Source: Planctomycetota bacterium (GTDB taxonomy: Bacteria; Planctomycetota; UBA8742; UBA2392). From it: DNA of 64,000 nucleotides. Both the position numbers and the translations under genes were made by a program. The stretch lies in NCBI GenBank assembly GCA_020638675.1, contig JACKID010000001.1, positions 2,051,261 to 2,115,260 on the forward strand, in the 5' to 3' direction. Numbering within the stretch: position 1 is the first letter of the stretch; the number at the start of each line of letters is the position of its first letter. The notes beneath the pieces are model-generated. The model was not told the DNA's origin, ran no database searches, and worked only from the letters and a program-made list of their open reading frames with translations. Positions 8,817 through 34,770 of the stretch are shown piece after piece.

Positions 8817-10727
8817 CTATTCCTTGGCGTGCGGGTCGTCCGGCTCGGGCTCGGACGGCTGTTCCGGCTGGGTTGGCTCAGCGGGAGCTTCAGGCTCGCC
8901 GCCTTTGCCGCCCGGCAGCGGCTTCAGCTTGAGTCCGCCCTGCTTCTTGATTCGTCCGCGCGACAGCTCGAGGGTGCTGGCCTCGAAGCGCGCGCGCTCT
9001 CGGCGCTCGCTGAGGATGAACCACGTCAATACCGCGAGCAGCAGCACCACACCGCCGATTCCGGCCACCGCGTACAGCCAGGCGCCTTCTTCACTGTCTT
9101 CGGCGATGCCTTTCATCTTTCGCACGATGATCAACGGCCGAACGCTTGAGCTGGTGCTGTTGCTCTCGAACACGTTGCGATAGTAGCGCGCGTCGATGTC
9201 GATCAGCGCGCGGGGCTCCAGCCCGGTGGGCGGCTCGATCATGTCACACAGGTAGCGCTTGGGTGTTTCCAGGTCGCCGGTGTCGTGCAGGACGAGCGCA
9301 CGGAACACGCGCCGCAGCCCGCTGATGTTCGGTGGCAGTATCACCGGCGCGTAGTCGTCGCCGATCATGCCGACGACGTGAATCCCCTGGCCGCGGTAGC
9401 GCGGGCCGGTTTCTTCACCCGCAAGGTCGAAGTAGCCGATCTCGGGCACGATCTCAACCTGGTCGTCCGGGTCGTTGGCCTTGGCGAGCATCGCGTAGTA
9501 CGCCGCCTCGGACTCAAGGTAGATCGGGTCTTCGCGCATCGCATCGCGCACCTGCTGAAGCAGTTCATCCGTAAGCTCGTAGGGCGACCTTTGGCTGAGT
9601 GCCAGGTCAGCCGTGAGCAGCAGCGGAAGATGGTCCTGCGTGACGACCTTCTTGGCCTGTGTGCTGTAGGGCTTGACCTCGCGGCTGTAGATCCAGCGGC
9701 GCAGGAACGCGCCTGTAAACTTGACCATCACCTTCTCGGTGACCAGCTTGTCTTCGTGCGAGACGGATCCCTTGTCGTTCACGTAGGGCTTGAGCGCATC
9801 CGGAATCGTCAAGGCCTGGAACTCGACGGTGCGCTGCTCAATCTTGTGTTCCTTGCGCAGCATTCCCGGGCCGAGCAACGCCACGACGCCCTCGTAGTAG
9901 CTTTCCACCTTTGTGCCGTCCTGCAGCACGATCGCCTTGTCGGGCCTGATTTCGTAAAGGTCGAACAGGCGCCCCTCGGCCGCGAAGCCCCGCCCGCGAT
10001 ACACTTCGCATACATCCTGCGACTTGCCGAAATACCAGCCGGACTGCTCGACGCGCTTCTGGTATTCGGCGTACGCCGCGCTGCCCGGTGCGGGCAGCTT
10101 CTTCAGAATCTGCAGTGCCAGCACCTCGTTGGTAGGCGCCTGGCGTCCGCGGTAGGCGTCGAACTCGTTCATCGACTTTTCGCGCGAGGCATCGGTGAAC
10201 TGCACGAAATCGAGCAGGTTCTGCGTTTCGTCCGCCAGCCTGAACACCGGCTCAAGCGTCAGCTTCTCGGCGATGGCCAGTTCCCGCTCCGCTTCCTGAC
10301 GCGCGAGGTCACGCTGATCGGTGCCGCCGCTTGACGGGAATGGGTCCGGCGGCGGCAGCTCTTCGCCGCCGTCGAACGGCAACCCGACGTCGTTCGACTT
10401 CGGCTTGTTGGCCTTCGTCGGGTCGGAGTCCGTCTCGAAGTTGCCGGGCAACTGGTTGATCGGATGCTCCGTCTGCCACTGTTCGCGCTTCTGCTTGAAC
10501 AACGCCCGAATCTGCTCGGTCGTCAGCAGCGGGTCGAAGTTGGTGCGGATGCTTTCCGGCTCCCAGTCCCAGGACTCGCGGTCGTCCTGCCACGAGTACG
10601 TCAGCAGCATGAAAATGATGCCGACCAGGCTGATCGTCATGACGACCAGTCCCGCCAGCTTCACGAACATCGCCGAAGCGGCGGGGGCGGGGCCGTGGTC
10701 AACTGGCTTGATGGAAATCTTCGCCAA
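8817..10727 (-). CDS. Hypothetical membrane protein: two TM helices (N- and C-terminal) flanking a large ~500-aa domain, Pro/Glu-rich C-terminal tail
   Basis: 636 aa; TM at approximately residues 20-43 and 555-580; no recognisable domain. First gene of a tight four-gene minus-strand cluster. Confidence 0.6.
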   Translation of the reverse strand: MAKISIKPVDHGPAPAASAMFVKLAGLVVMTISLVGIIFMLLTYSWQDDRESWDWEPESIRTNFDPLLTTEQIRALFKQKREQWQTEHPINQLPGNFETDSDPTKANKPKSNDVGLPFDGGEELPPPDPFPSSGGTDQRDLARQEAERELAIAEKLTLEPVFRLADETQNLLDFVQFTDASREKSMNEFDAYRGRQAPTNEVLALQILKKLPAPGSAAYAEYQKRVEQSGWYFGKSQDVCEVYRGRGFAAEGRLFDLYEIRPDKAIVLQDGTKVESYYEGVVALLGPGMLRKEHKIEQRTVEFQALTIPDALKPYVNDKGSVSHEDKLVTEKVMVKFTGAFLRRWIYSREVKPYSTQAKKVVTQDHLPLLLTADLALSQRSPYELTDELLQQVRDAMREDPIYLESEAAYYAMLAKANDPDDQVEIVPEIGYFDLAGEETGPRYRGQGIHVVGMIGDDYAPVILPPNISGLRRVFRALVLHDTGDLETPKRYLCDMIEPPTGLEPRALIDIDARYYRNVFESNSTSSSVRPLIIVRKMKGIAEDSEEGAWLYAVAGIGGVVLLLAVLTWFILSERRERARFEASTLELSRGRIKKQGGLKLKPLPGGKGGEPEAPAEPTQPEQPSEPEPDDPHAKE

Positions 10728-11913: not shown

Positions 11914-13110
11914 TTAGCGCTTCTGGGTGATGCGGCAGGAAAGGCCCGCATCCTTGAACCGGTCGCGCACGCCCTGGGCCTCGTCTTCCGAGACGCCCTT
12001 CACGACCGGCACAATCATCTTGCCGGCCAGAGCAATTGCAGAGTTCATGTCGATGCCCTGAATGTCCGCAATGATCTCGGCCGCGGCCTGCTTCTTGTCT
12101 GCGCCCTTGGGCGGCGACAGGAACACCGTGAAGTTGCCGCCACCTTCGGCCGCCTTGCGACCTGAGCCGCCGGCCGCCGGGGCTACCGCACCGGTGTTCG
12201 GCTTCTTGATCTGTTTCGTGACTGGCTTCTTGGCCGCGCCCGGGAGCTTCGGGGCGGGCTTGCCGGCCGGTGCCGGCGCGGCCTTGTTGAGTTTGGAAGT
12301 CTCGCGCTTCTTTTTCTCGAGGTTCGGGTCTTTGTAGGTGCTGGCCTTGCCGGTCCAGACCGGAAGAGTGTCTTCCGGGCCCGGCTTGAACTTGGCCTTC
12401 GGGTTTCCGTCAGCGTCCAATTCGACCTCCTCGTCATCAAGCGAAAGGTTTTCCAGCGAAAGTCCCGCGTCATCATCTTCGACCGACAGCGACGGCTGTG
12501 AAGCCTTGCGAGTCGGCGGCAGCATGGTCATGGCGTCCGCGTTGAAACCCGGCTCGTCATCTGCGGGAATATCCAGTGCATCTACGGGGATGTCGACCGA
12601 GTCATCGGACACATCCATCACGTCGCCCTCAAGCCCTAGGCCGCCCGCGTCGTCGCCGGGGATATCCACGCCGACGGACACGTTTTCGTCACCTTCCAGG
12701 TCGCTGAGGTCAAGGTCCAGGTCGTCGGACTCAGTTACATCCTGCGTCCCGACAGTCTCTTCCATCTGGACGCTGCCGTCGTCGTCCACATCGTCGAACG
12801 GGATGTCAACCGCCATCGGCTCACCGCCGAAGGGCTCAACGGCCGCGAGGCTCTCGACCTTCTGGGCCGGCATCGGCTCATGGGCGCTCTCGTTCTCGGC
12901 CGCAAATTCGTCGGTGAGATCGACCGGCTCAGGATCGTCATGGATGGGCGGGACGCCGCCGAAGATGGTAGGAGCGCCCATCGGCACGGGTGACGAAACT
13001 GCTACGCCGTCCGGGGTTAAACTCATGTCAAGGCGCAGGGGCTGACCGGGCACCTCAAGTCTTACTGATATCGAATCGCCGGGGCGAAGAACTACTTCTT
13101 GTGTGGCCAT
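11914..13110 (-). CDS. Polyelectrolyte protein: short N-terminal domain, long poly-acidic Asp/Glu-rich region, Lys/Pro-rich basic region and a C-terminal ribosomal L7/L12 C-terminal-domain-like fold
   Basis: 398 aa. The C-terminal 70 aa (FTVFLSPPKGADKKQAAAEIIADIQGIDMNSAIALAGKMIVPVVKGVSEDEAQGVRDRFKDAGLSCRI) match the L7/L12 CTD pattern F.V.L...K...IK.VR..TGLGLKEAK.LV...P..VKEGVSKEEAE.IK.KLEEAGA.VE. Confidence 0.6.
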   Translation of the reverse strand: MATQEVVLRPGDSISVRLEVPGQPLRLDMSLTPDGVAVSSPVPMGAPTIFGGVPPIHDDPEPVDLTDEFAAENESAHEPMPAQKVESLAAVEPFGGEPMAVDIPFDDVDDDGSVQMEETVGTQDVTESDDLDLDLSDLEGDENVSVGVDIPGDDAGGLGLEGDVMDVSDDSVDIPVDALDIPADDEPGFNADAMTMLPPTRKASQPSLSVEDDDAGLSLENLSLDDEEVELDADGNPKAKFKPGPEDTLPVWTGKASTYKDPNLEKKKRETSKLNKAAPAPAGKPAPKLPGAAKKPVTKQIKKPNTGAVAPAAGGSGRKAAEGGGNFTVFLSPPKGADKKQAAAEIIADIQGIDMNSAIALAGKMIVPVVKGVSEDEAQGVRDRFKDAGLSCRITQKR

Positions 13111-13326
13111 AGGTCGTTTTACACCTGTTCAGGCGTTGCCCGTCTTTCGCGGCTGCAATCCTTTGGGGTCAAGGAATTGTCGCGGTCAGCGGCAACTTGT
13201 GTCAAGCCCTTTCACAGAGCATCCCTGCGCACCGAGAATCACATCCTCACAGCATCCACGCAACATGCAAGCCGCCACCGGACACCCGTTGCCAAAGCCG
13301 CGGCGCAGTGGTTGCATACCGCCGAC

Positions 13327-14016
13327 ATGGTTGCCACGAACCCATCCGCAACGCCGGCCCTGCAAATCGAGGACCTGGTCAAGACCTATCCGGGCGGGAT
13401 TGAGGCCGTCAAGGGCGTCAGCCTAACCGTTCAGCAAGGCGAGATGCTTGCGATCATGGGCAAGTCCGGCAGCGGCAAGTCCACGCTCATGAGCCTGATC
13501 GGCACCCTCGACAAGCCGGACAGCGGCCGGATTCTGATCCATGGGCAGGACATCGCGCACATCAAGAACCTTGCCAGGTTCCGGCGCGAGGAAATCGGGT
13601 TCGTGTTCCAGTTGCACTATCTGCTCCCGCACCTGACGCTGCTCGACAACGTCGCGCTGCCCCTGTTGGGCAAGTCCGGTGCGCAAGACCTTGCCCGCAA
13701 GGCGCTTGAGCAGGTGGGGCTGTCGCACCGCGTGGGTCACGTGCCGGCCAAGGTCAGCGGCGGCGAACGCCAGCGTGCGGCCATCGCCCGCGCGATTGTG
13801 AATCGCCCGCGCGTTCTGCTTGCGGACGAGCCTACCGGCAACGTGGACAGCGAAAGCGAAGCCGTGCTGCTCGATCTGTTCCAGAGCCTGCAGGATGAAT
13901 TGGGGATGACGCTGATTGTAGTGACACACGAGCGCGGCGTGGCCGACCGGGCCGACCGAATCGTGCACTACAAAGACGGTCTGATTGAGCGGATCGAGAC
14001 CAGGGAATCAGTTTGA
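13327..14016 (+). CDS. ABC transporter ATP-binding protein (LolD/MacB-type ATPase)
   Basis: Walker A GKSGSGKST, ABC signature LSGGERQRAAIARA, Walker B VLLADEPTGNVD. Start placed at Met77 of ORF 13099..14016; the upstream 76 residues look like non-coding read-through. Confidence 0.85.
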   Translation: MVATNPSATPALQIEDLVKTYPGGIEAVKGVSLTVQQGEMLAIMGKSGSGKSTLMSLIGTLDKPDSGRILIHGQDIAHIKNLARFRREEIGFVFQLHYLLPHLTLLDNVALPLLGKSGAQDLARKALEQVGLSHRVGHVPAKVSGGERQRAAIARAIVNRPRVLLADEPTGNVDSESEAVLLDLFQSLQDELGMTLIVVTHERGVADRADRIVHYKDGLIERIETRESV

Positions 14017-14471
14017 GACTCGCAGCAGTCATATTGATGTTGGCACTCGGATTGGCGTGCGCCGGCTGCCTTGATTCGGGCAACATCCCCGGTGTCACCA
14101 CCGACCCCGAGGCCGCCGCCAAGGCCGCATTCCCGGAATTACCGCCCGCAGCCGAGGCCACGCAACTGAAAGATCGCGGGAGCAAGATGTTCAACGGGCT
14201 CGGCTGCCAGAGTTGTCATTCCACGACACACGAGCGCAACGGACTGATGGGACCGCCGCTGGGCGGAGTCAGCGACAGGGTGCTGGAACGCAAGGACCAT
14301 GACCCGTTGAAAGCGCGGCGCTGGCTGGTGATGCACATCAAGGACCCTTTGATGTACCCGAGCCCCTTCGCCGATCAAGCTGACTACAAGGGCACCCATA
14401 TGCCGCCCAACCCGCGCGTCACGGACGAAGACCTGCGCGCACTGGTTGAGTTTCTCTGGGCCCTGCGCTAA
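14013..14471 (+). CDS. Cytochrome c family lipoprotein (mono-heme)
   Basis: 152 aa; lipoprotein signal ending LACAGC; single CxxCH heme-binding motif (CQSCH). ATGA overlap with the upstream ABC ATPase. Confidence 0.7.
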   Translation: MRLAAVILMLALGLACAGCLDSGNIPGVTTDPEAAAKAAFPELPPAAEATQLKDRGSKMFNGLGCQSCHSTTHERNGLMGPPLGGVSDRVLERKDHDPLKARRWLVMHIKDPLMYPSPFADQADYKGTHMPPNPRVTDEDLRALVEFLWALR

Positions 14472-14503: not shown

Positions 14504-15589
14504 ATGCGCGGCCCGGCCGACCAACTCTCATTCCCTCCGGGAACCGAACTCGTGTTCGGGCCACAGGCCGCGCGCCGCCAGTTCATCAGCGACCGCATTG
14601 CCGAAGTCTCGAGAGGCTGGGGATTCACTGAGATCATTCTGCCCGCCTTCGACAGCGCCGAGACCTTCCGCGACCTCGGCGACGAGACCGAGCTTTACAA
14701 TCTTGTGGACCGCGAGGGCCACACGCTCACGCTGCGCGCAGACTTCACTTTGATCGCTGCCAAGGCCTTGGCGATGGAGTTGCGCCGGGAGCGACGCCAG
14801 ATCCGCGCCAGCTACGAAGGCCGCGTGTACCGCTTCGCGCCCAGCGGCCACGGTCATCGCGTCGAGCAGACCCAGCGCGGGCTGGAGTGGGTGAACGCAG
14901 CCGGCGCGACGTATGACGCAGCCGTACTGATGATGGCCCGCGAGTGCCTCAATGCGGGCGGCGCGGAGGATGCGATCATTGTCGTGGGGCACGGCGGGTT
15001 CATTCACGCAGCCCTCGGCGAAAAGGGGCGCAACGAGCGCCGCCTGATTGAAGCCCTTGACCACAAGAACCCGAGCCGCATCGCGCAGCTGGCACAGCGC
15101 GTCGGGCTTGATGCAGACACGGCCGCGCTGCTTGGGTCTTTGCCGCTGCTGACTGGCGGTCCGGAAGTGTTCAAGAACGCACGCGAGTTCAAGCTGAATG
15201 CCGCGGCAGACGCCGCGTTGTCCGAACTCGAGGGCCTGTATCGGTTGCTTGAGGAAGCCGGCGCGGCCGATCGTGTGCTGATCGACCTAGGCGAAGTGCG
15301 ACGCTCGGACTACTACAGCGGCTTCATGTTCAAGATCTACCACGAGGCCGTCGGCGAAGAGCTTGGCGGCGGGGGCCGCTACGATCGCCTGTTCGACCGC
15401 TTCGGGATGGACGTGCCGGCCGTGGGCTTCGGGTTCAACCTGGCCCGTTTGGCCGAGGCGACTTCACGCAACGGCTACGCGGGAACACCGCCGACTGCGA
15501 TAGCTTCGTCCGGCGGCGCTGACGCGCTGAAGAAGGTGCTGGAGCTGCGCCGTCAGGGCAAGCCAGTAGACCTGAAGGGGGATGCCTGA
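14504..15589 (+). CDS. hisZ: ATP phosphoribosyltransferase regulatory subunit HisZ (HisRS paralog lacking the anticodon-binding domain)
   Basis: 361 aa; class II aaRS-like core (RYDRLFDRFG, GFGFNLARL). Followed by a short-form hisG with overlapping stop/start. Confidence 0.8.
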   Translation: MRGPADQLSFPPGTELVFGPQAARRQFISDRIAEVSRGWGFTEIILPAFDSAETFRDLGDETELYNLVDREGHTLTLRADFTLIAAKALAMELRRERRQIRASYEGRVYRFAPSGHGHRVEQTQRGLEWVNAAGATYDAAVLMMARECLNAGGAEDAIIVVGHGGFIHAALGEKGRNERRLIEALDHKNPSRIAQLAQRVGLDADTAALLGSLPLLTGGPEVFKNAREFKLNAAADAALSELEGLYRLLEEAGAADRVLIDLGEVRRSDYYSGFMFKIYHEAVGEELGGGGRYDRLFDRFGMDVPAVGFGFNLARLAEATSRNGYAGTPPTAIASSGGADALKKVLELRRQGKPVDLKGDA

Positions 15590-16233
15590 TGCTGCGCATG
15601 GCACTCCCTACCGGGCGAATGCTGAAACAGGCTATGCCGTTTCTGGAAGCCGCAGGCTACGCTCCGAACGAGCCGCTGCATGAGACCCGCAAGCTGACCG
15701 TGCCCAGCAAATGCGGGCGCATTGAGTATCTGCTGGTGAAGCCGGTGGACGCCCCGCTGTATGTCGAGCAGGGCGTGGCGGAAGTCGGCGTGTGCGGCAA
15801 GGACGTGCTGATGGAAGTCGGCGCCGACCTGCTCGAGCCGCTCGACCTTGGGTTCGCTCGCTGCCGCATGGTCGTTGCAGGAAAGCCTGAGATCGAACGC
15901 AAGCTGGACAACCTGCTGTCGCCGGTCCGCGTCGCCAGCAAGTTTCCGCGGGTGGCGCAGCACTACTTCCTGAAGAAGGGTACGCCGTGCACGGTGTTCA
16001 AGCTGTCCGGGAGCGTAGAAATCGGTGCGGTGCTGGGGCTTTCTCACTACATTGTAGACATAGTGGAAACAGGCACGACGCTGAAGGAGAACGGGCTTGT
16101 CGTGCATGAAGAAATCGCGGAGTGCAGCGCGCGCCTGGCGGTGAATCGCGCCGCTTGGTACGCGAAGCTGGCGGAAGTGCGCGAGCTGCTGAACAACCTG
16201 AAACAGTCCGTCGAGGGGGCAAGCCATGACTGA
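15589..16233 (+). CDS. hisG: ATP phosphoribosyltransferase, short form
   Basis: 214 aa; HisG motifs (MLRMALPTGR, GVCGKDVL, DIVETGTTLKENGL). Confidence 0.9.
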   Translation: MLRMALPTGRMLKQAMPFLEAAGYAPNEPLHETRKLTVPSKCGRIEYLLVKPVDAPLYVEQGVAEVGVCGKDVLMEVGADLLEPLDLGFARCRMVVAGKPEIERKLDNLLSPVRVASKFPRVAQHYFLKKGTPCTVFKLSGSVEIGAVLGLSHYIVDIVETGTTLKENGLVVHEEIAECSARLAVNRAAWYAKLAEVRELLNNLKQSVEGASHD

Positions 16234-17626
16234 CACGCTGAACATCTACGAAGTCGGCTCTGACGAGTTCACCGCGTTCCAGAGGCGGCTTGCGGCGCGC
16301 GCGCTGTCTGACGACATGTCGCTGGGCGGCAAGCCGGGCGAATTGCTGCAGCGCGCCCAGGACAGCGGTGACTCCGAATTCGCGGCGTTCGCCACGGCGT
16401 TTTATGAAGGCCTCGCGCACACCGCGCGCGCAACGGTCGAACGCGTCATCCAGCGGGTCGAGACCATGGGGGATGAAGGCGTGCGCCAGTGCGCGCGACT
16501 GTTCGACGGGCAGGAATTGCCGACGGCACGCATCCAGGTCAACAAACTGGACCTGATGAAGGGCGCCGACGGCGTCGATGAAGCGCTGCTGAAGCAATGC
16601 ACTGACGAGATAATGCCGCGCCTGCGCAAGTTCCACGAGAAGCAGAGAGAAGCGTCGTGGCAGATTGACGACGACGGCGGCTCCGTCGGCGTGCGGGTAC
16701 AGCCGCTGCGCCGCGTCGGCCTGTACATTCCGGGTGGAACTGCCTGCTACCCCAGCACCCTGATGATGACGTATGTGGCGGCTCAGGTCGCAGGCGTCGA
16801 GGAGATCGCTGTCTTCACTCCGCCGGAGACCCTGGAAAAGTCCCCGCTGCTGTGCGCGCTGCTCAATGAGCTTGGCATCAATGAGGTGTTCCGCGTCGGC
16901 GGCGCGCAGGCCATCGCTGCTGCCGCCATCGGCACCGAGAAGATCGCCAGGGTCGACAAGATAGTAGGCCCGGGCAACATCTTCGTGGCAATCGCGAAGC
17001 AGATGCTCAGTGGACGCGTCGGCATTGACAGCTTTGCGGGCCCCAGCGAAATCGTCGTCGTGTTCGACGCATCGTCAGACCCGGCGCTGGTAGCCGCGGA
17101 CATGCTGGCCCAGGCCGAGCACGATGGTCACGCCGCCGCAATCGGCATCACCGACAGCGCCGAGCAGGCCGAGAAGGTGAAGGCAGAAGTCGCGAAGCAA
17201 CTCGCAGACCTGCCGCGTAAGGACATCATCGAAGTGTCCCTCAGGACCTACGGTGGAATTCTCTGCGTGCCGAGCAAAGGCTTTGCGTTCCGCTTTGCCG
17301 ACTCGATCGCGCCGGAACACCTTGAGTTGCATACCGAGGACGCCGAAAACGACGCCAAGCAGATCAAGAACGCGGGCGCAATCTTCATCGGCCCATACGC
17401 GCCGGAATCGTTCGGCGACTACAACGCCGGGCCAAACCACACGCTGCCCACGGCCGGCAGCGCGCGTTGGGCGAGCGCGCTCAGCGTGCGCGACTTCGTG
17501 CGCCACGTCAGCATCATCCGCGGCAGCAAAGAGCTTCTCGCGGCAAACAAGGATGCGGCCATCGGGCTTGCACGCGCCGAACAGCTGGAAGCCCATGCCC
17601 GCAGCCTCGAGAAGCGTTTCTCCTGA
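16226..17626 (+). CDS. hisD: Histidinol dehydrogenase
   Basis: 466 aa; HisD motifs (GPGNIFV, AGPSEIVVV, AQAEHDGHAAA). Overlaps hisG by 8 nt. Confidence 0.9.
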   Translation: MTDTLNIYEVGSDEFTAFQRRLAARALSDDMSLGGKPGELLQRAQDSGDSEFAAFATAFYEGLAHTARATVERVIQRVETMGDEGVRQCARLFDGQELPTARIQVNKLDLMKGADGVDEALLKQCTDEIMPRLRKFHEKQREASWQIDDDGGSVGVRVQPLRRVGLYIPGGTACYPSTLMMTYVAAQVAGVEEIAVFTPPETLEKSPLLCALLNELGINEVFRVGGAQAIAAAAIGTEKIARVDKIVGPGNIFVAIAKQMLSGRVGIDSFAGPSEIVVVFDASSDPALVAADMLAQAEHDGHAAAIGITDSAEQAEKVKAEVAKQLADLPRKDIIEVSLRTYGGILCVPSKGFAFRFADSIAPEHLELHTEDAENDAKQIKNAGAIFIGPYAPESFGDYNAGPNHTLPTAGSARWASALSVRDFVRHVSIIRGSKELLAANKDAAIGLARAEQLEAHARSLEKRFS

Positions 17627-18702
17627 TGAACGACACGACGCTTAAATATTTCAAGCAGCAGCTTCCGGGACTCGCGGGCGGCTACACGCTCGACGTGCCC
17701 GATTGCGCCATCAAGCTGAACCAGAATGAGAACGCCTGGGACTGGCCCGCGCACCTGAAGCAGGAAGTGTTCGAGCGCGTCCGCGACCTGCCGTGGAATC
17801 GCTACCCGCCGTTTACGCCGGACGCTTTCGTGGGCAAGGTTGCGGCACACATCGGGGCAGAACCGGGACAGGTGCTCGTCGGCAACGGCAGCAACGAGCT
17901 GCTCTATTCCGTGTTCGTCAGCACTCTTGAGCGCGGGCGCAAGGTCGTGATTCCGCAGCCCACGTTCACCGTCTACAAACTGCTGGCGGACCTGCTCGGT
18001 GCGGATGTCGAGACAGCGGGCCTGGACGATGAACTGCAGTACGACTCGGCCGCACTGGAGAAAGCCGCTGAGGACGCAGCGGTCGTCGTCCTGGCGACGC
18101 CCAACAACCCGACCGGAAGCGTGATCGACCCGACCGACCTGGAACATCTGGTCAATACCAGCGGCGCGCTCTGGGTCGTTGATGAAGCCTATTTCGAGTT
18201 TCACGGCGAGACCGCGATTGAGCTTACGCGAAGCTGCCGCAATCTCGTGGTCTTGCGCACGTTCAGCAAGGCGCTCGCGACGGCCGGGCTGCGCTTCGGC
18301 TGCATGGTCTGCCACCCGGAGGCGCGCCCGATCTTCGGCGCTGCGAAGCTTCCCTACAACCTGAACATCTTCACGATGGCCGCGGTCGAGACCGCGATTG
18401 AGAACGCAGTCACCATGAAGACCCGCGTGGAGGAAACCAAACGCGAGCGTGACCGCATCGCACGCAAGCTGCGCGAGTACACCGGCGTGAAGGTCTATCC
18501 AAGCCGCGCAAACTTCATCCTGTTCGAGACCGAGCGCAGCCCGCGTGACGTTTGGAAGGCTATGGTCGAGCGCGGCGTGTTAATCCGCGATGTCTCCGGC
18601 TATCCGCGATTGGGCAAGGCCCTGCGGGTAAGCATCGGGCGGCCGGAAGAAAACGATGCATTCATCAAGGCGCTGGAATACGCGATGACGGTGGTGGCAT
18701 GA
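17626..18702 (+). CDS. hisC: Histidinol-phosphate aminotransferase
   Basis: Start at ATG 17626 (overlapping the hisD TGA) within ORF 17467..18702; class II aminotransferase with the PLP lysine in FSKA; typical HisC N-terminus (IKLNQNENAW). Confidence 0.85.
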   Translation: MNDTTLKYFKQQLPGLAGGYTLDVPDCAIKLNQNENAWDWPAHLKQEVFERVRDLPWNRYPPFTPDAFVGKVAAHIGAEPGQVLVGNGSNELLYSVFVSTLERGRKVVIPQPTFTVYKLLADLLGADVETAGLDDELQYDSAALEKAAEDAAVVVLATPNNPTGSVIDPTDLEHLVNTSGALWVVDEAYFEFHGETAIELTRSCRNLVVLRTFSKALATAGLRFGCMVCHPEARPIFGAAKLPYNLNIFTMAAVETAIENAVTMKTRVEETKRERDRIARKLREYTGVKVYPSRANFILFETERSPRDVWKAMVERGVLIRDVSGYPRLGKALRVSIGRPEENDAFIKALEYAMTVVA

Positions 18703-19292
18703 CGCAGCGCACGGGTACGTTCACCCGCAAGACGGCCGAGACGCAGATCAACGTCGAAATCAACATTGATGGCGAAGGCAGCTACGACGTCGACACCGGC
18801 ATCGGGTTCCTGAACCACATGCTGGAGTTGTTCAGCAAACACGGACTGTTCGACCTTAAGGTGACCTGCAAGGGCGACCTGGAAGTAGACGCGCACCACA
18901 GTGTGGAAGACATCGCCATCGCCATCGGCGAAGCGTTCAAGCAGGCCGCCGGCGACAAGGCGGGCATCAACCGCTATGGCCACGCGTACATCCCGATGGA
19001 TGAGGCGTTGATTCGCTGTGCGCTCGACCTCAGCGGTCGCCCGTACCTGGCGTGCGAGCTCGGCAACATGCAGCGCGAAGAGGTGGGGGGGCTGCCGACG
19101 GAAATGGTCGAGCACTTCTGGCGCAGCTTCAGCACGCACTTCCCGATGAACCTGCACATTGACGTTCTGCGCGGCGACGACACGCACCATATCATTGAGG
19201 GCGTGTTCAAGGCGGTCACCAAGGCCCTGCGCGTTGCGCTGGACTTTGACCCGCGGCGCAAAGGCGTTCCCAGCACCAAGGGCGTGCTATAG
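18699..19292 (+). CDS. hisB: Imidazoleglycerol-phosphate dehydratase (IGPD domain only)
   Basis: 197 aa from ATG 18699 (overlaps the hisC stop); IGPD motifs (RKTAETQI, DTGIGFLNHML, DAHHSVEDIAIA, HHIIEGVFKA). No histidinol-phosphatase domain. Confidence 0.9.
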   Translation: MTQRTGTFTRKTAETQINVEINIDGEGSYDVDTGIGFLNHMLELFSKHGLFDLKVTCKGDLEVDAHHSVEDIAIAIGEAFKQAAGDKAGINRYGHAYIPMDEALIRCALDLSGRPYLACELGNMQREEVGGLPTEMVEHFWRSFSTHFPMNLHIDVLRGDDTHHIIEGVFKAVTKALRVALDFDPRRKGVPSTKGVL

Positions 19293-19294
19293 CC

Positions 19295-19903
19295 ATGGCC
19301 GCCGTCACGATCGTCGATTCCGGCATCTGCAATCTCGCCAGCATCTCGCGCTCGCTGGAGCGGGCAGGTGGGCGGGTGCACGTTGCGTCAGGACCAGAGG
19401 ATCTCACGCTCGCGCAGCGCCTGGTGCTGCCCGGGGTAGGAAGTTTTCCCGCAGGCATGAAGGCGTTGAACGAGCGCGGGCTCAGCGAGGCGATTCGCGA
19501 TTTCGCCGCGACCGGCAAGCCGGTGCTGGGAATCTGCCTGGGCATGCAGCTCCTGTTTGAAACGGGCGAAGAGTTCGAGCCCACAACGGGCCTGGGGCTG
19601 ATTCCAGGTCGGGTGCGAGAGATTCGGGCAGGAGACAATCCTTCACCGCACATGGGCTGGAACCGCGTAAACGTAACGGCCGACGATCCGTTGTTGCGTG
19701 ACCTGCCGGCCGAGCCGTTCCTGTATTTCGTGCACAGCTATGTGTGCGAGCCGGTCGAGGCTTCCGACGTCATCGGCGAGACTGAATACGCGGAGACATT
19801 CTGCAGCGTCGTGCGGCGAGGCAATGTGCGCGGCATCCAGGCGCACCCGGAAAAGAGCCAGCGCTGCGGCGCCAGGCTGCTGGAGAATTTCCTCAAGCTA
19901 TGA
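19295..19903 (+). CDS. hisH: Imidazole glycerol phosphate synthase, glutamine amidotransferase subunit
   Basis: 202 aa; class I GATase (GICLGMQLL with catalytic Cys; HSY; H-E near the C-terminus). Confidence 0.9.
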   Translation: MAAVTIVDSGICNLASISRSLERAGGRVHVASGPEDLTLAQRLVLPGVGSFPAGMKALNERGLSEAIRDFAATGKPVLGICLGMQLLFETGEEFEPTTGLGLIPGRVREIRAGDNPSPHMGWNRVNVTADDPLLRDLPAEPFLYFVHSYVCEPVEASDVIGETEYAETFCSVVRRGNVRGIQAHPEKSQRCGARLLENFLKL

Positions 19904-20634
19904 GCGACTTCACTCTCTATCCGGCCATTGATCTGCGACAGGGGCGCGTCGTCCGCCTGCAGCAAGGCCGCGCCGACGCCGAAACCACATACGGCGAAGA
20001 CGCCATGGAGGTTGCGCGCGAGTTCGAGGCACAGGGCGCCGAGTGGCTGCACGTCGTCAATCTCGACGGCGCGTTCGGCGACGCGAGCGAAAACCTGTCT
20101 GTCCTGAGCACAATCTGCGGCGTCATCGACATCCCCGTCGAATTCGGGGGCGGGCTGCGGTCCGCGAACGACGTCCGGCGAGCGCTCGACCTTGGCGCCG
20201 CCCGCGTGATTCTCGGTACGGTGGCGCTGCGAAAGCCTGAGCTGGTTCGCGAACTGGCCTCAAAGCATGCGGACAAGATCGCGGTCGGAATCGACGCACG
20301 AAACGGCATGGTCGCCGTGGAAGGCTGGGTCGAAACCAGCGAAACCTCGGCCGAAGAGTTGGCCCGCCGCATGATGGATGCCGGAGTGCGGCGCTTCATC
20401 TACACTGACATTGCGCGCGACGGCATGATGGTGGGGCCCGATCTGGACGGTGCCACGAAGCTCGCGCAGGGCGGTGCGGGAGTGATCGCCTCCGGTGGAG
20501 TTGGAACGCTGGAGCATGTGACGTCGGCCGCAACCGCGTCAGGCGTCGAGGGATTGATCGTCGGCAAGGCGTTGTATGAAGGGCGATTTACGGTAAGAGA
20601 GGCGCTGGAGGCGGTGAAAGGAACACGGACATGA
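19900..20634 (+). CDS. hisA: 1-(5-phosphoribosyl)-5-[(5-phosphoribosylamino)methylideneamino]imidazole-4-carboxamide isomerase
   Basis: 244 aa; HisA motifs ([53 protein letters not shown]). Confidence 0.9.
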   Translation: MSDFTLYPAIDLRQGRVVRLQQGRADAETTYGEDAMEVAREFEAQGAEWLHVVNLDGAFGDASENLSVLSTICGVIDIPVEFGGGLRSANDVRRALDLGAARVILGTVALRKPELVRELASKHADKIAVGIDARNGMVAVEGWVETSETSAEELARRMMDAGVRRFIYTDIARDGMMVGPDLDGATKLAQGGAGVIASGGVGTLEHVTSAATASGVEGLIVGKALYEGRFTVREALEAVKGTRT

Positions 20635-21398
20635 GCGACTTCCTGGTGATCCCGGCCATCGAGCTGCGCGGTGGCATGGCCCTGCGCTACGAATCTGTCG
20701 GCATGGGCACGCGCGCCAACCGCGTTGAGCCGATCGGCTTCGCGCGCCAGTTCGTCGAAGCCGGCGCCAGGATGCTGCACGTCTACAATCTCGACGGCCC
20801 GTTCATCGTGAGCCAGGCCGAGCACTCCGGCAGCGTGCTCGCCGGCGCCGAACGCAACCTGACCGTGATGGGCGAGATGGCCAAGACACTCAACGTACCG
20901 ATCCAGGTCAGCGGCGGTATCCGCGATTTCGAGAGCTTCAAGATGATCACGCGGCTTGGCATCCAGCGCGCCGCGATCGGCAGCTCGGCCATGCAGGATC
21001 CGTCGCTGGTCGCCGCCTGTGTTGCCGAAAATGCCGACGCCGCGGTTGTGTACATCGACGCCAAGGATGGCCGTCTTGTTTCGCAGGAGTGGATCAAGGA
21101 CGCAAAGGCCAGCGTGGCCGACGTCGCCGCCAAGGTTCGCGAAGCGGGCGTAAAGCATTTCATCTACCAGGACGTAGCGGCCGACGCGGCCGGCAACGGG
21201 CCTCGGGCAGCCGATGCCGCGCAGGTCGGTGCTGACGTTATTGTCACCGGCGGCGTCCAGACGCTCGACCACATCAAGGCCGCGGCCTCGGTCAGCGGCG
21301 TAAGCGGTGTGCTTGTCGGCAAGCCGCTGATGCAGGGGGAGTTCACCCTGCAGCAGGCCGAAGAATACGCCAAGGCCGGATTCGCGGCGCGAAGCTGA
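20631..21398 (+). CDS. HisA/HisF-family (beta/alpha)8 barrel paralog, divergent; function unknown
   Basis: 255 aa; clear HisA-like fold signatures ([52 protein letters not shown]) but an altered catalytic region (E for D in PAIEL; the RDG Asp is replaced) and a ~25-aa insertion. Sits between hisA and hisF with overlapping stop/start codons. Confidence 0.6.
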
Positions 21399-21400
21399 TC

Positions 21401-22171
21401 ATGCTTGCAAAACGACTCATCGTGTGCCTCGACGTGAAAGACGGCCGCGTCGTGAAGGGCGTGAATTTCGTGGGGCTGCGTGACGCAGGCGACCCAGTTG
21501 AGTGCGCGGTGCGCTACGACCGCGAAGAGGCCGACGAGCTGGTCTTTCTGGACATCACGGCCAGCAGCGACGAGCGCGACACGACCGTCGAGCTGGCCCG
21601 CCGCTGCGCGCTTGAGCTGAGCATTCCCTTCACCATCGGCGGCGGCGTTCGCAGCGTGGACGATTTCGAAAGGCTCCTGCGCGCCGGGGCGGACAAAGTG
21701 GCGATCAACAGCGCCGCCGTGAAGAACCCCGAATTGATCCGCCAGTGCTCGGAGCGCTTCGGCAAGCAGGCAGTTGTGCTCGCCGTGGATGCGCGTCGGA
21801 CCGGCCAGGGCTGGCACGTTTACGTGAAAGGTGGACGAGAGGACACCGGGATGGACGCGCTGGAGTGGATTCGGCAAGGGGTCGCTCTCGGCGCCGGCGA
21901 GATCCTGCTGACCAGCATGGACCGCGACGGCACAGGCAAAGGCTTTGACCTTGATCTCACCCGATCCGCGGCCGAAGCGGTGGCCGTGCCGGTGATCGCT
22001 TCCGGCGGCGTTGGTACACTGGAACATCTGGCCGAAGGCCTGCAAGCCGGGGCGGCTGCGGTGCTCGCGGCCGGGATATTCCATTTCGGGCAGCACAGCG
22101 TCGCGGAAGCCAAGCAGTTTCTGCGGGAGAGACACATCGCCGTGCGCCCGCCGGAGGCTATGCCCGCATGA
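21401..22171 (+). CDS. hisF: Imidazole glycerol phosphate synthase, cyclase subunit
   Basis: 256 aa; HisF motifs ([52 protein letters not shown]). Confidence 0.9.
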
Positions 22172-23478
22172 GCGACATTACCGAACAGGCGCCGGTCAGC
22201 GGACTGAAGTTCGACAGCAACGGGTTGCTGCCGTGCATCATGCAGGACGCCCGCAGCGGTGAAGTGCTGACGCTGGCGTGGATGAATCTGGAGGCCTTCA
22301 AGCACACGCTCGAGACCGGGCTGGTGACGTTCTATTCGCGCAGCCGCAAACAGCTTTGGACCAAAGGCGAAACCAGCGGCAACATCATGCGCGTGGCCGA
22401 GCTGAAGCTCGACTGCGATGGTGACGCACTGGTCGCCCGCGTGCTGCCGGAAGGTCCGGCATGCCACACCGGCGAAGGCGACTGCTTCTTCCAGACCGTG
22501 TTCAAGAACAAGGCGGTGCTCAGCGAAGTCGAGGGAGCGCCCGCACGGACAGACGGCTGGGGCGCGCGCCTGGGTACACTGATGGATGACGTGCGCACGC
22601 TGCTGCAAGAGCGCAAGGCAACGCTGCCCGAAGGCAGCTACAGCACGTACCTGTTCACCAAGGGTCTCGACAAGATTCTCAAGAAACTCGGTGAAGAGGC
22701 CACCGAGACAATCGTCGCCGCCAAGGGAAGCGACCGCAGTGAGCTGATTGGCGAGATGTGTGACCTCGTGTTCCACCTAATGGTGCTGATGGTGGAAAAG
22801 GAAGTCAGCTTCGAAGACATCCGGCGCGTCATGCAGAAGCGCCACCGCAGCGACGAGGCCAAGGCTTCCCCGGACACTGAGTTGAAGGTCAGTCGCCCGG
22901 TTGAGTGCGAGCCGCTTGAGAAGCGCCTGCTTCAGCAGCTCGATCCCAGCCTTCACCGTGACGTGACGCGCGCGCTGGAAGTCATGTACCGCGCGCACAA
23001 GGGTCAGCTGCGCGACGGGGGACTGCCCTACGCGACCCACCCGCTGGAGGTTGCACTGGTGGCCGTCGAGGACGTCAAGCTTCGCGAGCGCGACGAGATC
23101 ATCACGGCGCTGCTGCACGACGTGCTCGAAGACGACATGGAAACCACGCCGGCCGAGTTGACCGACAAGTTCGGCGAAAAGGTTTCGGCCGGGGTCGTGC
23201 TGCTGACCAAGATGTACAAGCGCGACGGCTCACCCAAAGAGCTGGGGCTGCAGCGCTACTATCAGGGCCTGCGCACGGCGCCTGGCTGGGTGCGCGCGAT
23301 CAAGATGTGCGACCGTGTGCACAACCTGCGGTGCCTGCCGGACTCCGGCCGCAGTGCCGAAGAGATCGCCCACTATGTGAAGGAATCACGGGCGCACCTG
23401 CTGCCCCTTGCGGCCAGCACGACGGACCAGCGGCTGCTGCGCGCCGGCGACCTGCTGTTGAAGGAACTCTACAAGTAG
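22168..23478 (+). CDS. hisIE: Tri-domain fusion: phosphoribosyl-AMP cyclohydrolase (HisI) / phosphoribosyl-ATP pyrophosphatase (HisE) / C-terminal RelA-SpoT-type HD hydrolase domain (small alarmone hydrolase-like)
   Basis: 436 aa. Residues ~1-110 are HisI ([32 protein letters not shown]). Residues ~125-215 are HisE/MazG-like ([44 protein letters not shown]). Residues ~250-436 match the RelA/SpoT HD domain ([49 protein letters not shown]). Confidence 0.85.
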
Positions 23479-27831: not shown

Positions 27832-27908
27832 GGACGTGTAGCTCAATTGGTTAGAGCATCTGCTTTACACGCAGAGGGTCGGGGGTTCGAGTCCCTCCAC
27901 GTCCACCA
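27832..27908 (+). tRNA. tRNA-Val (anticodon TAC)
   Basis: Manual cloverleaf: acceptor GGACGTG/CACGTCC, D-arm GCTC...GAGC, anticodon stem TCTGC/GCAGA with loop TTTACAC (anticodon TAC), T-arm GGGGG TTCGAGT CCCTC, discriminator A, encoded CCA. Confidence 0.85.
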
Positions 27909-30381: not shown

Positions 30382-31098
30382 TTACTTCTTCTCGCCCTTG
30401 TCCGGCTGATCGCCCTCGGCAGGCTTTTCGGGCTTGTCTTCGGTCTTGTCAGCCTTGCCGTATTCGACTTTGAGCGCCGCCTCGATCTCCTTGCGCAGGT
30501 CCGCATCCTCCGGCGTGACCTTGCTGGCGTAGAACTTGATCACCTTGCCGTCCTTGCCGACGAGGTACTTGCAGAAGTTCCAGCTGGGCAGTTCTTCGGA
30601 TTGTTTCTTCAGGTTGGCGTAGATCGGCGACTGGCCGTCGCCTTCCTTGGTCTGGACTTTCTCAAACAGCGGGAAGGTGACTTCGTACTTGTCGGTGCAG
30701 AACTTGCGAATCTCTTCGGGTGTGCCCGGCTCCTGTCCGCGGAAGTCGTTGCTGGGGAAGCCGAGAATCACGAAGCCCTTGTCCTTCAGGTCTTCGTACA
30801 GCTTCTCCAAGCCGGTGTATTGCGGCGTGTAGCCGCACTTGCTGGCGACGTTAACCACGAGCGTTACTTTGCCCTGGTAGTCTTTCAGGTCTGCGTCTTC
30901 GCCCTCGAGCGTCTTGGTCTTCAGGCGATAGAGGGAGTCCTCAGGCAACTCTGCTTCTTGCTTGTCGCTGGAGTTGTCGTCTGACTTGGCAACCTTTCCG
31001 TCGTCATCCTTGGCGGGCTTGTCGTCCTGCGCGACGACTCCAAGGGTCGGCAGGGCCAGCAGCGTGAGCAGCGCCGCGAACTGCATCATTCGGTTCAT
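30382..31098 (-). CDS. Glutathione peroxidase, secreted form with charged N- and C-terminal extensions
   Basis: 238 aa; signal peptide; GPx core (LVVNVASKCGYTPQY, LGFPSNDFRGQEPG, WNFCKYLVGKDGKVI) flanked by K/D/E-rich tails. Confidence 0.85.
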   Translation of the reverse strand: MNRMMQFAALLTLLALPTLGVVAQDDKPAKDDDGKVAKSDDNSSDKQEAELPEDSLYRLKTKTLEGEDADLKDYQGKVTLVVNVASKCGYTPQYTGLEKLYEDLKDKGFVILGFPSNDFRGQEPGTPEEIRKFCTDKYEVTFPLFEKVQTKEGDGQSPIYANLKKQSEELPSWNFCKYLVGKDGKVIKFYASKVTPEDADLRKEIEAALKVEYGKADKTEDKPEKPAEGDQPDKGEKK

Positions 31099-31115
31099 GA
31101 CGAGTCTCCGGTTTC

Positions 31116-31601
31116 TCAGGCACTCAGCGCGTCGTTGATGTCAGTCAGCAGTTGCGAATCATCGGGCTTCGTCGGCGGTGCATAGCGCTTGATAACCTGG
31201 CCATCCTTGCCGACGAGGTACTTCGTAAAGTTCCAGTCCGGCTCGTCCTGGTCGGACGTCAGGAACTGATACACCGGGTGCTTGCCGTCGCCCTTCACTT
31301 CGACCTTCTCGAACATCGGGAAGTCGACGTGGAACTTCGTTGTGCAGAACTCACGAATCTGCTCTGCCGACCCGGGCTCTTGCGCGCCGAACTGATTGCA
31401 CGGAAAGCCGAGCACGTTGAAGCCCTTGCCGGACAGCTCAGACTGCAGCTTCTGCAAACCCTCATAGTGCGGCGTAAGCCCGCAGGCGCTGGCCACGTTC
31501 ACGACAAGACTGACATTGCCCTTGTATTGCGACAGGTCGGCCGGCTTGCCCTCGAGCGTCTTTGTCTTCAGGTCGTACAGCGATGCCATGACTTCTCCCA
31601 T
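31116..31601 (-). CDS. Glutathione peroxidase (cytoplasmic)
   Basis: 161 aa; GPx core (LVVNVASACGLTPHY, LGFPCNQFGAQEPG, WNFTKYLVGKDGQVI). Confidence 0.9.
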   Translation of the reverse strand: MGEVMASLYDLKTKTLEGKPADLSQYKGNVSLVVNVASACGLTPHYEGLQKLQSELSGKGFNVLGFPCNQFGAQEPGSAEQIREFCTTKFHVDFPMFEKVEVKGDGKHPVYQFLTSDQDEPDWNFTKYLVGKDGQVIKRYAPPTKPDDSQLLTDINDALSA

Positions 31602-33585: not shown

Positions 33586-34770
33586 GTGGACGTCTTCGCC
33601 AAGTGCTTCGAATTCACGCGCGACCTTGAAGTTCAGGCGGCGGGGCTATACCCCTTCTTCAAGACGATTGAGGGTAACCACGGCTCGCGGGTAGTGATCG
33701 ATGGCCGCGAAGTCGTCATGGCCGGGTCCAACAACTACCTGGGCCTGACGCGTCACCCGCGCGTAGTCGAAGCTGCCGTCAAGGCAACCAAAGAGTTCGG
33801 CACGTCCTGCAGCGGATCTCGCTACGCCAATGGCACTTATGTAATCCACGTCGAGCTTGAGGAAAAGCTCGCGGATTACATGGACAAGCCCAAGGCCCTC
33901 TGTTTCACGACGGGCTACACGACCAACATGGGCGCGATCAGCGTGCTGGCCGGGCGTCGCGACATCATTTACAGCGACCGCGAAAACCACAGCTGCATCA
34001 TGGACGCAACGCAGCTCACGTTCGCGGAAACCAAGAAGTACAAGCACGACGACATCGAAGACCTCGCCCGCATCCTGGAAAACTCACCTGCGGACGCGGG
34101 CAAGCTGATCGTTTCTGACGGCGTGTTCAGCATGAAGGGCACCATCTGCCGCCTGCCGGAGATGGTTGAACTCAAGAAGAAGTACGGCGCCCGCATCTTC
34201 GTTGACGACGCGCACGGCGTGGGCGTTGTCGGCCCCACAGGCCGCGGTACGGCCGAGCATTATGGCCTCGATAAAGACGTCGACGTGGTGATGGGCACGT
34301 TTAGCAAGAGCTTTGCCGGCCTCGGCGGCTTCATCGCCGGCGAGGAACGCGTCATCAACTACGTGAAGCACCACGCACGCCAGTTGATCTTCGCGGCCAG
34401 CATGACGCCCGCCAGCGTCGCGGCCGTGAGTACCGCGCTGGACATGATCCGCAGCGAGCCGCAGCACCTTGAGAACCTGCGCAAGGTGATCTCGAGTGTT
34501 CGCGCGGAATTCCGCCGCATCGGCTACCCGGTCGACGACCAGCCGACGCCGATCGTCTACGTGAAGGTGGGCGAAGACATCGAAGCGTTCCAGTTCTGGA
34601 AAGAGCTGCTTGAGATGGGCGTCTACACCAACCCGGTCATCACGCCGGGCGTGCCCCAAGGCCAGAGCGGCGTACGCGCCAGCTTCATGGCAATCCACAC
34701 TGAAAGCGACCTCGCGCGCATCATCGACGCGTTCGAGAAGCTCGGCAAGAAGTACGGGCTGCTGAAGTAG
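33586..34770 (+). CDS. Alpha-oxoamine synthase family PLP enzyme (serine palmitoyltransferase/BioF/KBL-like; SPT-like by motif)
   Basis: 394 aa (GTG start per ORF track); PLP-lysine motif GTFSKSFAGLGGFIAG resembles SPT (GTFTKSFG) more than BioF or KBL; fold-type I aminotransferase throughout. Confidence 0.75.
   Translation: MDVFAKCFEFTRDLEVQAAGLYPFFKTIEGNHGSRVVIDGREVVMAGSNNYLGLTRHPRVVEAAVKATKEFGTSCSGSRYANGTYVIHVELEEKLADYMDKPKALCFTTGYTTNMGAISVLAGRRDIIYSDRENHSCIMDATQLTFAETKKYKHDDIEDLARILENSPADAGKLIVSDGVFSMKGTICRLPEMVELKKKYGARIFVDDAHGVGVVGPTGRGTAEHYGLDKDVDVVMGTFSKSFAGLGGFIAGEERVINYVKHHARQLIFAASMTPASVAAVSTALDMIRSEPQHLENLRKVISSVRAEFRRIGYPVDDQPTPIVYVKVGEDIEAFQFWKELLEMGVYTNPVITPGVPQGQSGVRASFMAIHTESDLARIIDAFEKLGKKYGLLK

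Follow-up and report, generated by a model that had tools for sequence, protein, structure and literature searches.

A HisIE protein carrying a predicted small alarmone hydrolase module, and its HisA-like partner, in uncultured Planctomycetota

We analyzed a 64,000-nucleotide stretch of DNA (hereafter the window) from a Planctomycetota bacterium (GenBank assembly GCA_020638675.1, contig JACKID010000001.1, positions 2,051,261 to 2,115,260), focusing on the last gene of its histidine biosynthesis (his) operon. This gene encodes a real three-domain protein, in which HisIE – the joined HisI and HisE domains – is followed by a predicted small alarmone hydrolase (SAH) module of the HD type, and the fusion is conserved. 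The most constant partner of the HD module is not HisIE, though: it is HisA2, a HisA paralog encoded in the same operon. What is new here is a domain architecture and a gene partnership for a known hydrolase family, found in a narrow clade of uncultured Planctomycetota.

The terminal his gene encodes a conserved three-domain protein

The fusion gene (hisIE~HD) occupies 22168..23478 on the forward strand, starts with ATG and encodes 436 amino acids. A preliminary description of this DNA, made from the sequence alone, had reported this open reading frame (ORF) as the his operon's final gene; both the frame and its place hold, the operon order being hisZ-G-D-C-B-H-A-(A2)-F-IE~HD, and all four of the motifs quoted in that description occur in the translation. 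The protein comprises, in order, HisI (Pfam PRA-CH, PF01502, residues 36-108, 106.8 bits against a cut-off of 27), HisE (PRA-PH, PF01503, residues 141-226, 73.8 bits against 21.3), a disordered linker, and a complete SAH unit recognized by HD_4 (PF13328, residues 269-397, 47.2 bits, where the gathering score is 27.2). The NCBIfam HisIE equivalog NF002747 covers residues 7-227 with 242 bits (cut-off 187), and the solved structures nearest to the N-terminal half are HisIE enzymes (6j22, 7bgm). Only positions 1-122 of the RelA/SpoT model TIGR00691, its hydrolase part, align, to residues 269-390. The Pfam search gave no match to the synthetase domain PF04607 in the fusion protein, a feature that separates an SAH from a long RelA/SpoT homolog (RSH).

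The window protein is 100% the same as GenBank MCB9894562.1 (P0200 in our protein set, from a 3.09-Mb contig), which the annotation pipeline PGAP labels plainly as ‘HisIE’. A search of 5.8 billion proteins identified 39 clusters (P0001-P0039) with 60-92% identity, at least 94% query coverage and lengths of 405-452 amino acids, every one of which contains PF01502, PF01503 and PF13328; below them, from P0040 onward, there are only HisIE proteins of ~240 amino acids. The three-domain clusters stem from NCBI, JGI, ENA and Logan assemblies. At the DNA level, nine independent loci read from HisIE into HD in a single frame free of internal stops: the window, L002, L084, L085, L089, L091, L092, L094 and L095.

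The preliminary description had named a frameshift or assembly error, artificially joining hisIE to a separate HD gene, as what would undo its reading. One GenBank record, that of L002, appears to point that way by annotating just the last 166 amino acids as a separate HD protein, but the L002 frame actually continues through the whole of HisIE~HD. With ~39 clusters and nine uninterrupted loci, such an artefact is ruled out to near certainty. In the L002 record (DAOMXR010000019.1, 3657-4994), the 166-residue product is HRJ77143.1, ‘HD domain-containing protein’, and hisIE seems to be absent from the gene list.

The HisIE half retains its motifs

The HisI (phosphoribosyl-AMP cyclohydrolase) domain spans 22168..22512 (+; residues ~1-115). 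In a 31-sequence alignment its D82-C83-D84-x-D86, C99-H100 and C106 are invariant, and we take D82, C83, D84, D86, C99, H100 and C106 to be the metal ligands known from HisI structures. The HisE (phosphoribosyl-ATP pyrophosphatase) domain spans 22558..22848 (+; residues ~131-227), also matches TIGR03188 (96 bits) and is modelled confidently by AlphaFold2, with a predicted local distance difference test (pLDDT) score of 85-92. Residues E176, E177, E180, E196 and D199, which form the acidic EExxE and ExxD motifs and presumably have the roles that they have in HisE structures, are invariant in the same alignment. Because the motifs of both domains are invariant, the biosynthetic half of the protein looks functional.

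The inter-domain linker (22849..22893, +; residues ~228-242) varies in both length and sequence among relatives. AlphaFold2 gives pLDDT values below 50 at residues 227-240, none of the 15 linker columns is invariant, and linker length differs across the nine loci. Mean pairwise identity is 0.36 in the linker, compared with 0.75 in HisI, 0.74 in HisE and 0.68 in HD. The predicted TM-score (pTM) of the whole-protein model is 0.48; the model therefore supports no fixed arrangement of the domains, and no inference on channelling between HisE and HD.

A predicted SAH-type hydrolase module

The HD module occupies 22894..23475 (+; residues ~243-436). RSH hydrolases are marked by six motifs: an HD1 Arg that stacks on the base, an HD2 His, an HD3 His-Asp, an HD4 Glu-Asp, an HD5 Asp-Arg/Lys and an HD6 Asn (PMC9293644). 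The window protein has R282 (HD1), H291 (HD2), H317-D318 (HD3), E321-D322 (HD4), D382-R383 (HD5) and N386 (HD6). We scored conservation in two alignments, one of 31 fused sequences (A2) and one of 19 fused and stand-alone sequences (A1). Five of the six motifs do not vary in either, and neither does a group of basic residues; in HD5 the Asp is nearly invariant, D382 being replaced by Gly in one stand-alone sequence. The module opens with a family-specific helix, K-[VI]-x-R-P-x-x-C (K-V-S-R-P244-x-x-C247 in the window), which the stand-alone forms carry too.

The HD module is modelled by AlphaFold2 with pLDDT 86-97. Foldseek aligns ~178 residues of it to the Pseudomonas aeruginosa SAH (6yvc; TM-score 0.81, root mean square deviation 2.9 Å) and to human MESH1 (5vxa; TM-score 0.82). 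By sequence, the best PDB matches of the C-terminal part are the SAHs 6yvc, 6z3n and 6z3o (E~1e-16), followed by the hydrolase domains of long Rel enzymes and then by MESH1. Judged by sequence and by modelled fold alike, the C-terminal ~200 residues are a bona fide SAH-type hydrolase unit of the RelA/SpoT superfamily, with a predicted activity. The preliminary description had assigned a RelA/SpoT-type HD domain with intact metal-ligand positions and had proposed a profile search of the C-terminal region as a check; the significant HD_4 match, the partial TIGR00691 match, the family-wide conservation of the motifs and a modelled fold that is that of a complete SAH all bear the assignment out.

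This HD clade is isolated. Among 1.84 billion representatives clustered at 50% identity, only three clusters score at least 145 bits, and the next scores 103 bits. The closest outgroup SAHs (P0143, P0150) have no his genes nearby. Other proteins with a C-terminal HD_4 domain after ~200 residues (P0287, P0347, P0379, P0354 and others) include none with HisI or HisE; they have tandem HD_4 domains or unassigned N-terminal regions, apart from one phosphofructokinase fusion. The latter (P0344, 742 amino acids, from outside the window) has phosphofructokinase PF00365 followed by HD_4, and is a case of another metabolic enzyme joined to an SAH-type hydrolase.

A HisA paralog is the constant partner of the HD module

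The HisA2 gene (20631..21398, +) encodes a 255-amino-acid PF00977 protein and lies between hisA and hisF; the preliminary description had not recognized it as a partner of the fusion. HisA2 is a HisA/PriA-like TIM-barrel paralog that scores 129 bits against the HisA model TIGR00007, below the cut-off of 229, and it coexists in the operon with a normal hisA (19900..20634, +), which encodes the isomerase of N'-(5'-phosphoribosylformimino)-5-aminoimidazole-4-carboxamide ribonucleotide (ProFAR) and scores 251 bits. In the window contig the HisA2 protein is P0209 (locus tag H6839_08930), from a metagenome-assembled genome (MAG) named ‘Planctomycetes bacterium’; PGAP labels HisA2 a ‘hypothetical protein’. 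HisA2 forms 46 clusters of 49-100% identity, separated by a gap from ordinary HisA at 33%.

HisA2 and the HD clade co-occur in all 14 loci long enough to judge – nine in the operon form and five in a compact cassette form – and six further contigs that end short agree; a metagenome scan with HisA2-specific peptides contributed 11 loci. In the cassette loci (L001, L003, L086, L087 and L088) the HD gene begins 0-16 nucleotides downstream of a HisA2 ortholog, and no other his gene is nearby. These orthologs share 46-65% identity with the window HisA2 and only 33-38% with HisA. The stand-alone HD homologs (P0124-P0131) are 52-59% identical to the window HD module; one of them, P0127, is a mis-called fusion. 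The ABC (ATP-binding cassette) ATPase and cytochrome c genes that form the left flank in the window recur in three cassette loci (L001, L086 and L087), along with the window's Methyltransf_3 and Pur_DNA_glyco genes, but hisZGDCBHA, hisF and hisIE are missing from that site.

Both families are narrow, with sharp score gaps to their next relatives. Taxonomy was taken from source names, and the named members are Planctomycetes or Planctomycetota MAGs (all Planctomycetes for HisA2).

Neighbor-joining trees of HD and HisA2 from the same loci agree on the groups for which both give good support: each recovers window/L084/L089 (bootstrap 100% for HD and 100% for HisA2), L002/L091/L092 (83% and 100%) and L001/L003/L086 (100% and 100%). 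Within the HisA2 tree, the cassette clade formed by L001/L003/L086 groups with the window operon clade at 98%, with other operon-type lineages outside. Since these cassettes are nested among operon forms, they are most simply read as the product of a secondary fission: the rest of the his genes were lost from the site, and HisA2 and HD remained side by side. At depth the HD tree is poorly supported (19-42%), and it contains basal stand-alone forms, leaving the ancestral state uncertain. The HD module and HisA2 persist where hisIE is absent; fusion to HisIE is therefore dispensable. Whichever state is ancestral, the unit under selection is HisA2 with HD rather than HisIE with HD, and the HisIE fusion appears to be a derived means of co-expressing the hydrolase with the pathway.

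HisA2 retains most ProFAR-contact positions on a modified barrel

HisA2 is modelled as a TIM barrel (AlphaFold2 pLDDT 92, pTM 0.90), and its top PDB profile match is Streptomyces coelicolor PriA (132 bits). We compared 45 HisA2 sequences with HisA, using the numbering of Salmonella enterica HisA, with HisA positions that are approximate. R83, W145 and the phosphate-site glycines G81, G102, G204 and G225 are invariant, and G203 is Gly in 44 of 45 sequences. Position 15 has Arg or Lys in place of R15, 43 of 45 sequences keep H47, and 40 of 45 keep D129; in the remaining five, this residue (D143 of HisA2) is Asn or Ala. At the catalytic positions, Asp7 has become Glu in all 45 sequences, and the position of Asp176 still has Asp in 37 but Glu in the other eight. 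In HisA2's own numbering, the ligand and catalytic positions are R98, W154, G96, G117, G208 and G230, with an acidic pair of E11 and D/E185. Because nearly all of the positions that contact ProFAR are kept, HisA2 probably binds a ProFAR-like bis-phosphoribosyl ligand.

Three loops set the paralog apart. Loop 1 has a new invariant G-x-G-T-R-x-x-R motif with basic residues R28 and R31; in loop 6, ‘RDG’ is changed to ‘ADA’; and loop 2 has a 13-residue insertion at the substrate face (residues ~57-70; E64-H65-x-G-S-V-L-A-G-A73) that is absent from every HisA/PriA structure and is modelled less confidently than the rest of the barrel.

The his operon lacks one pathway step

The other operon genes, all on the forward strand, are hisZ (14504-15589), a short-form hisG (15589-16233), hisD (16226-17626), hisC (17626-18702), hisB (18699-19292), hisH (19295-19903) and hisF (21401..22171; TIGR00735, 338.6 bits). 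The hisA stop codon overlaps the HisA2 start (ATGA), as does the hisF stop codon the start of the fusion gene (ATGA). The same gene order is found in L084, L085, L094 and L095. HisB aligns with no more of the bifunctional model than its dehydratase half and is thus an imidazole glycerol phosphate (IGP) dehydratase only. We found no gene for a histidinol-phosphate phosphatase (HolPase) in the operon, and this is the only pathway step absent there.

The HD module could in principle fill that gap as a fourth type of HolPase. HD domains are phosphohydrolases, the operon covers every other step, and HolPases are notoriously non-orthologous (PMC5516325, PMC12220765). A PHP-family protein encoded nearby is YciV-like and not HisK-like. 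The invariant features of the module nevertheless suit a polyphosphorylated nucleotide: the base-stacking Arg of HD1, the base-binding Asn of HD6 and the basic cluster. Its sequence matches only HD_4/HD models, with no homology to the known HolPase families (HAD HisB-N, PHP HisK/J, IMPase HisN). An IMPase-type HisN, encoded elsewhere, is general in Planctomycetia (PMC5516325), and a HolPase role would leave HisA2 and the cassettes without his genes unexplained. We consider such a role very unlikely.

The PHP protein (37978-38784, reverse strand) was rejected as a HisK-type HolPase. It is closest to YciV-type 3',5'-nucleoside bisphosphate phosphatase/RNase RNM (220 and 188 bits, both below cut-off). 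In L085 the gene is conserved, again a few kilobases downstream of the operon, and L002 has a PHP gene at its end.

Proposed function of the HisA2-HD pair

Because the Mn2+ site, the catalytic Glu-Asp pair and the two base-holding residues (Arg and Asn) are intact, the HD module is most likely active on a purine nucleotide. We propose that it is an active Mn2+-dependent 3'-(pyro)phosphohydrolase of a (p)ppGpp/(p)ppApp-type purine nucleotide, partnered by HisA2 and tied to the histidine pathway, and we give this proposal about an even chance of being right. The HisI and HisE domains account for steps 3 and 2 of histidine biosynthesis. The module comes in two arrangements, and in the fused one the hydrolase would be made at a fixed ratio to the his enzymes. 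HisA2 would bind or convert a bis-phosphoribosyl intermediate of the pathway, thereby tying the activity of HD, or the supply of its substrate, to pathway flux. SAHs are constitutively active in vitro and need outside regulation (PMC9293644); HisA2 might be a ligand sensor that regulates such an otherwise constitutive enzyme, or it might be a companion enzyme. Removal of a nucleotide alarmone would in this way be coupled to histidine synthesis in a lineage without the usual long Rel/SpoT regulator. The preliminary description had likewise suggested that pathway flux might be coupled to alarmone turnover, which is plausible.

Several points weigh against this proposal. Neither the window nor 238 kb of clade loci yielded a (p)ppGpp/(p)ppApp synthetase, and a survey of RSH proteins reported none in the Planctomycetes-Verrucomicrobia-Chlamydiae (PVC) superphylum, with one planctomycete sampled (Atkinson et al., PMC3153485). 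The presumed alarmone substrate may therefore not exist in these cells. A later paper mentions subfamilies of toxic small alarmone synthetases (toxSAS) in Planctomycetes (bioRxiv 10.1101/2021.04.30.441581). Enzymes of the SAH fold are also promiscuous – MESH1 and XccSAH hydrolyse NADPH too (PMC9765508) – and where ppGpp hydrolases usually have Lys or Arg following the HD1 Arg (PMC9293644), this family has Asp, Glu, Ala or His. At the Rfam gathering threshold the window contains no riboswitch for ppGpp, phosphoribosyl pyrophosphate (PRPP) or 5-aminoimidazole-4-carboxamide riboside triphosphate (ZTP), and no attenuator RNA precedes the operon. Finally, the physical or regulatory interaction between HisA2 and HD is one that we infer from gene order alone.

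A different reading makes the pair a metabolic side-branch or repair route, in which HisA2 and HD would act in sequence on a nucleotide derived from the histidine pathway and not on a signalling alarmone. The substrate might be, for example, a compound resembling ProFAR or phosphoribosyl-AMP (PR-AMP) with an extra 3'-(pyro)phosphate or a polyphosphate, which would be returned to the pathway or made into another product. The preliminary description had itself named a by-product of the pathway as an alternative substrate. We know of no such extra-phosphorylated intermediate, which counts against the idea. The architecture of HisA2 fits it well, with an acidic catalytic pair, nearly all of the ProFAR contacts, a basic loop 1 (R28, R31) and the loop-2 insertion, as do the strict linkage and translational coupling of the HisA2-HD gene pair and the joining of HD to the enzyme that makes ProFAR. 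The lack of an alarmone synthetase in the window and clade loci, together with the report of an RSH-free PVC superphylum (PMC3153485), would also be expected. The gene pairing, however, also fits a regulator and its enzyme, five loci hold the pair with no his genes nearby, and the Asn or Ala at D143 in five of 45 HisA2 proteins would be odd for a strict enzyme. We regard this reading as possible but rather unlikely.

Alternatively, the HD module might be a housekeeping phosphatase resembling MESH1, whose target would be the 2'- or 3'-phosphate of some abundant adenine nucleotide such as NADPH, 3'-phosphoadenosine 5'-phosphate (pAp) or its phosphosulfate (PAPS), with a link to histidine synthesis that is incidental or a matter of cofactor balance. 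Its modelled fold lies no further from MESH1 (TM-score 0.82; the matches include 5vxa, an NADPH complex, and 9chy, a PAPS complex) than from the bacterial SAH, the promiscuity documented for SAHs has been shown for metazoan MESH1 and the Xanthomonas SAH (PMC9765508), and an orphan hydrolase of this kind would suit a lineage reported to lack RSH synthetases (PMC3153485). In sequence, though, PaSAH and long Rel enzymes match it better (E 1e-16 to 1e-13) than MESH1 does (1e-7), and the obligate HisA2 partner and the repeated placement in his operons would be left unexplained. A purely MESH1-like role is accordingly improbable in our judgment.

Returning to an alarmone-type hydrolase partnered by HisA2, a broader and more doubtful extension is that HisA2 and HD form a new two-part module. 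A HisA-derived barrel would sense an intermediate like ProFAR or its phosphoribulosyl form (PRFAR), or make a new phosphoribosyl nucleotide, and would control or feed an RSH-type hydrolase. The pair would then be a nucleotide-signalling or nucleotide-repair circuit of its own, wired into histidine synthesis in a PVC lineage without Rel/SpoT, with a substrate that may be an undescribed nucleotide.

Other features of the window

Immediately before hisZ, an ABC-ATPase gene and a small cytochrome c gene (13099..14471, +) form a left flank that is conserved whether the locus has the operon or the HisA2-HD cassette. The ATPase is LolD/FtsE-like and the cytochrome c has 152 amino acids; in L001, L086 and L087 this pair of genes stands ahead of the cassette. 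Downstream of the fusion gene lies a convergent gene for a resistance-nodulation-division (RND) transporter. The sole Rfam match in the window is a tRNA (27832-27905, +, 74.7 bits) slightly beyond the point where the membrane-fusion gene of the RND efflux pair starts.

Elsewhere, a single protein at 4716-6557 (reverse strand) combines homocysteine S-methyltransferase (PF02574) and methylenetetrahydrofolate reductase (PF02219). Tandem glutathione peroxidase genes lie at 30382-31601 (reverse strand; 238 and 161 amino acids), and L084 has one GSHPx gene at the matching place. A BioF/Kbl-family pyridoxal phosphate-dependent acyltransferase is encoded at 33586-34770 (+); among NCBIfam models it matches serine palmitoyltransferase best (475 bits, short of the cut-off of 640), and it may be of the sphingolipid type. 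At the right end of the window, a DUF444 (YeaH-like) protein (62266-63375, reverse strand) is followed by an ORF at 63372-63932. Large ORFs with high GC content at third codon positions and no Pfam match (E<=1e-5) occur at 8817-10727 and 11914-13110 on the reverse strand and at 43982-45289, 46824-48041 and 60637-62202 on the forward strand. The one of 636 amino acids has a counterpart of 608-611 amino acids, likewise without a Pfam match, at the corresponding position in L001 and L086.

Relation to known systems and significance

The HD module resembles characterized SAHs (P. aeruginosa 6YVC, Corynebacterium glutamicum RelH 7QOD, MESH1 3NR1/5VXA) in being a single HD_4 domain of ~180-200 amino acids with the six motifs, an all-helical fold (TM-score ~0.8) and no synthetase. 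It differs from them in being fused to HisIE or encoded right after a HisA paralog, in having an extra conserved N-terminal helix with an invariant C247, and in forming an isolated clade. It also occurs in Planctomycetota, a phylum reported as RSH-free, and outside any toxin-antitoxin or prophage context. Long Rel/SpoT enzymes have the same hydrolase domain (28-29% identity to Thermus thermophilus Rel structures; phmmer E 4e-14 to 2e-8 to Rel/RelA/SpoT), which is controlled by attached or associated sensor domains. Here, in contrast, there is no synthetase, TGS or ACT domain, and the candidate sensor is a separate HisA-like TIM barrel – a sensor that would be unprecedented for an RSH enzyme.

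On the histidine side, the first 227 residues match bifunctional HisIE (Shigella 6J22; plant HISN2 7BGM), scoring above the equivalog cut-off with invariant motifs and encoded by the last gene of the operon, but a third, unrelated catalytic domain has been added. Fungal HIS4 (HisIE-HisD) likewise has the HisIE C-terminus extended by another enzyme through a variable linker (PMC1963479). The five catalogued his fusions (hisA/F, hisIE, hisHF, hisNB and hisIED) all join his enzymes together (PMC1963479), whereas the domain added here comes from a nucleotide-signalling family with no assigned pathway step. HisA2, for its part, is like HisA/PriA in its (beta/alpha)8 barrel, both phosphate sites, W145, R83 and an acidic, though not identical, pair at the catalytic positions, and unlike them in its score below the equivalog cut-off, the Asp7-to-Glu change, the loss of RDG, the GxGTRxxR motif and the loop-2 insertion.

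Our literature search found no paper combining alarmone hydrolases with HisIE or HisA, in keeping with the remark in the preliminary description that the fusion was not known as a described architecture. The main text of a 2020 census of 11 SAH subfamilies does not mention an architecture with HisIE. With one component labelled ‘HisIE’ and the other ‘hypothetical protein’, the module is invisible in current databases.

How SAHs are regulated, and what orphan SAHs do without synthetases, are open questions in the field (PMC9293644, PMC9765508). The system described here is an SAH that seems to have been hard-wired to one biosynthetic pathway in two ways, by fusion to HisIE or in a cassette with a HisA paralog, and it is testable: three soluble proteins or domains that should be expressible in E. 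coli. If the HD module degrades (p)ppGpp/(p)ppApp, the PVC superphylum, which textbooks list as RSH-free, would be shown to have alarmone metabolism, and with it a new pathway-specific form of alarmone control. If it does not, the system would suggest that histidine synthesis is linked to a new nucleotide substrate and that the HisA fold has a further, new function. The architecture itself is unexpected for the RSH and histidine-pathway fields alike.

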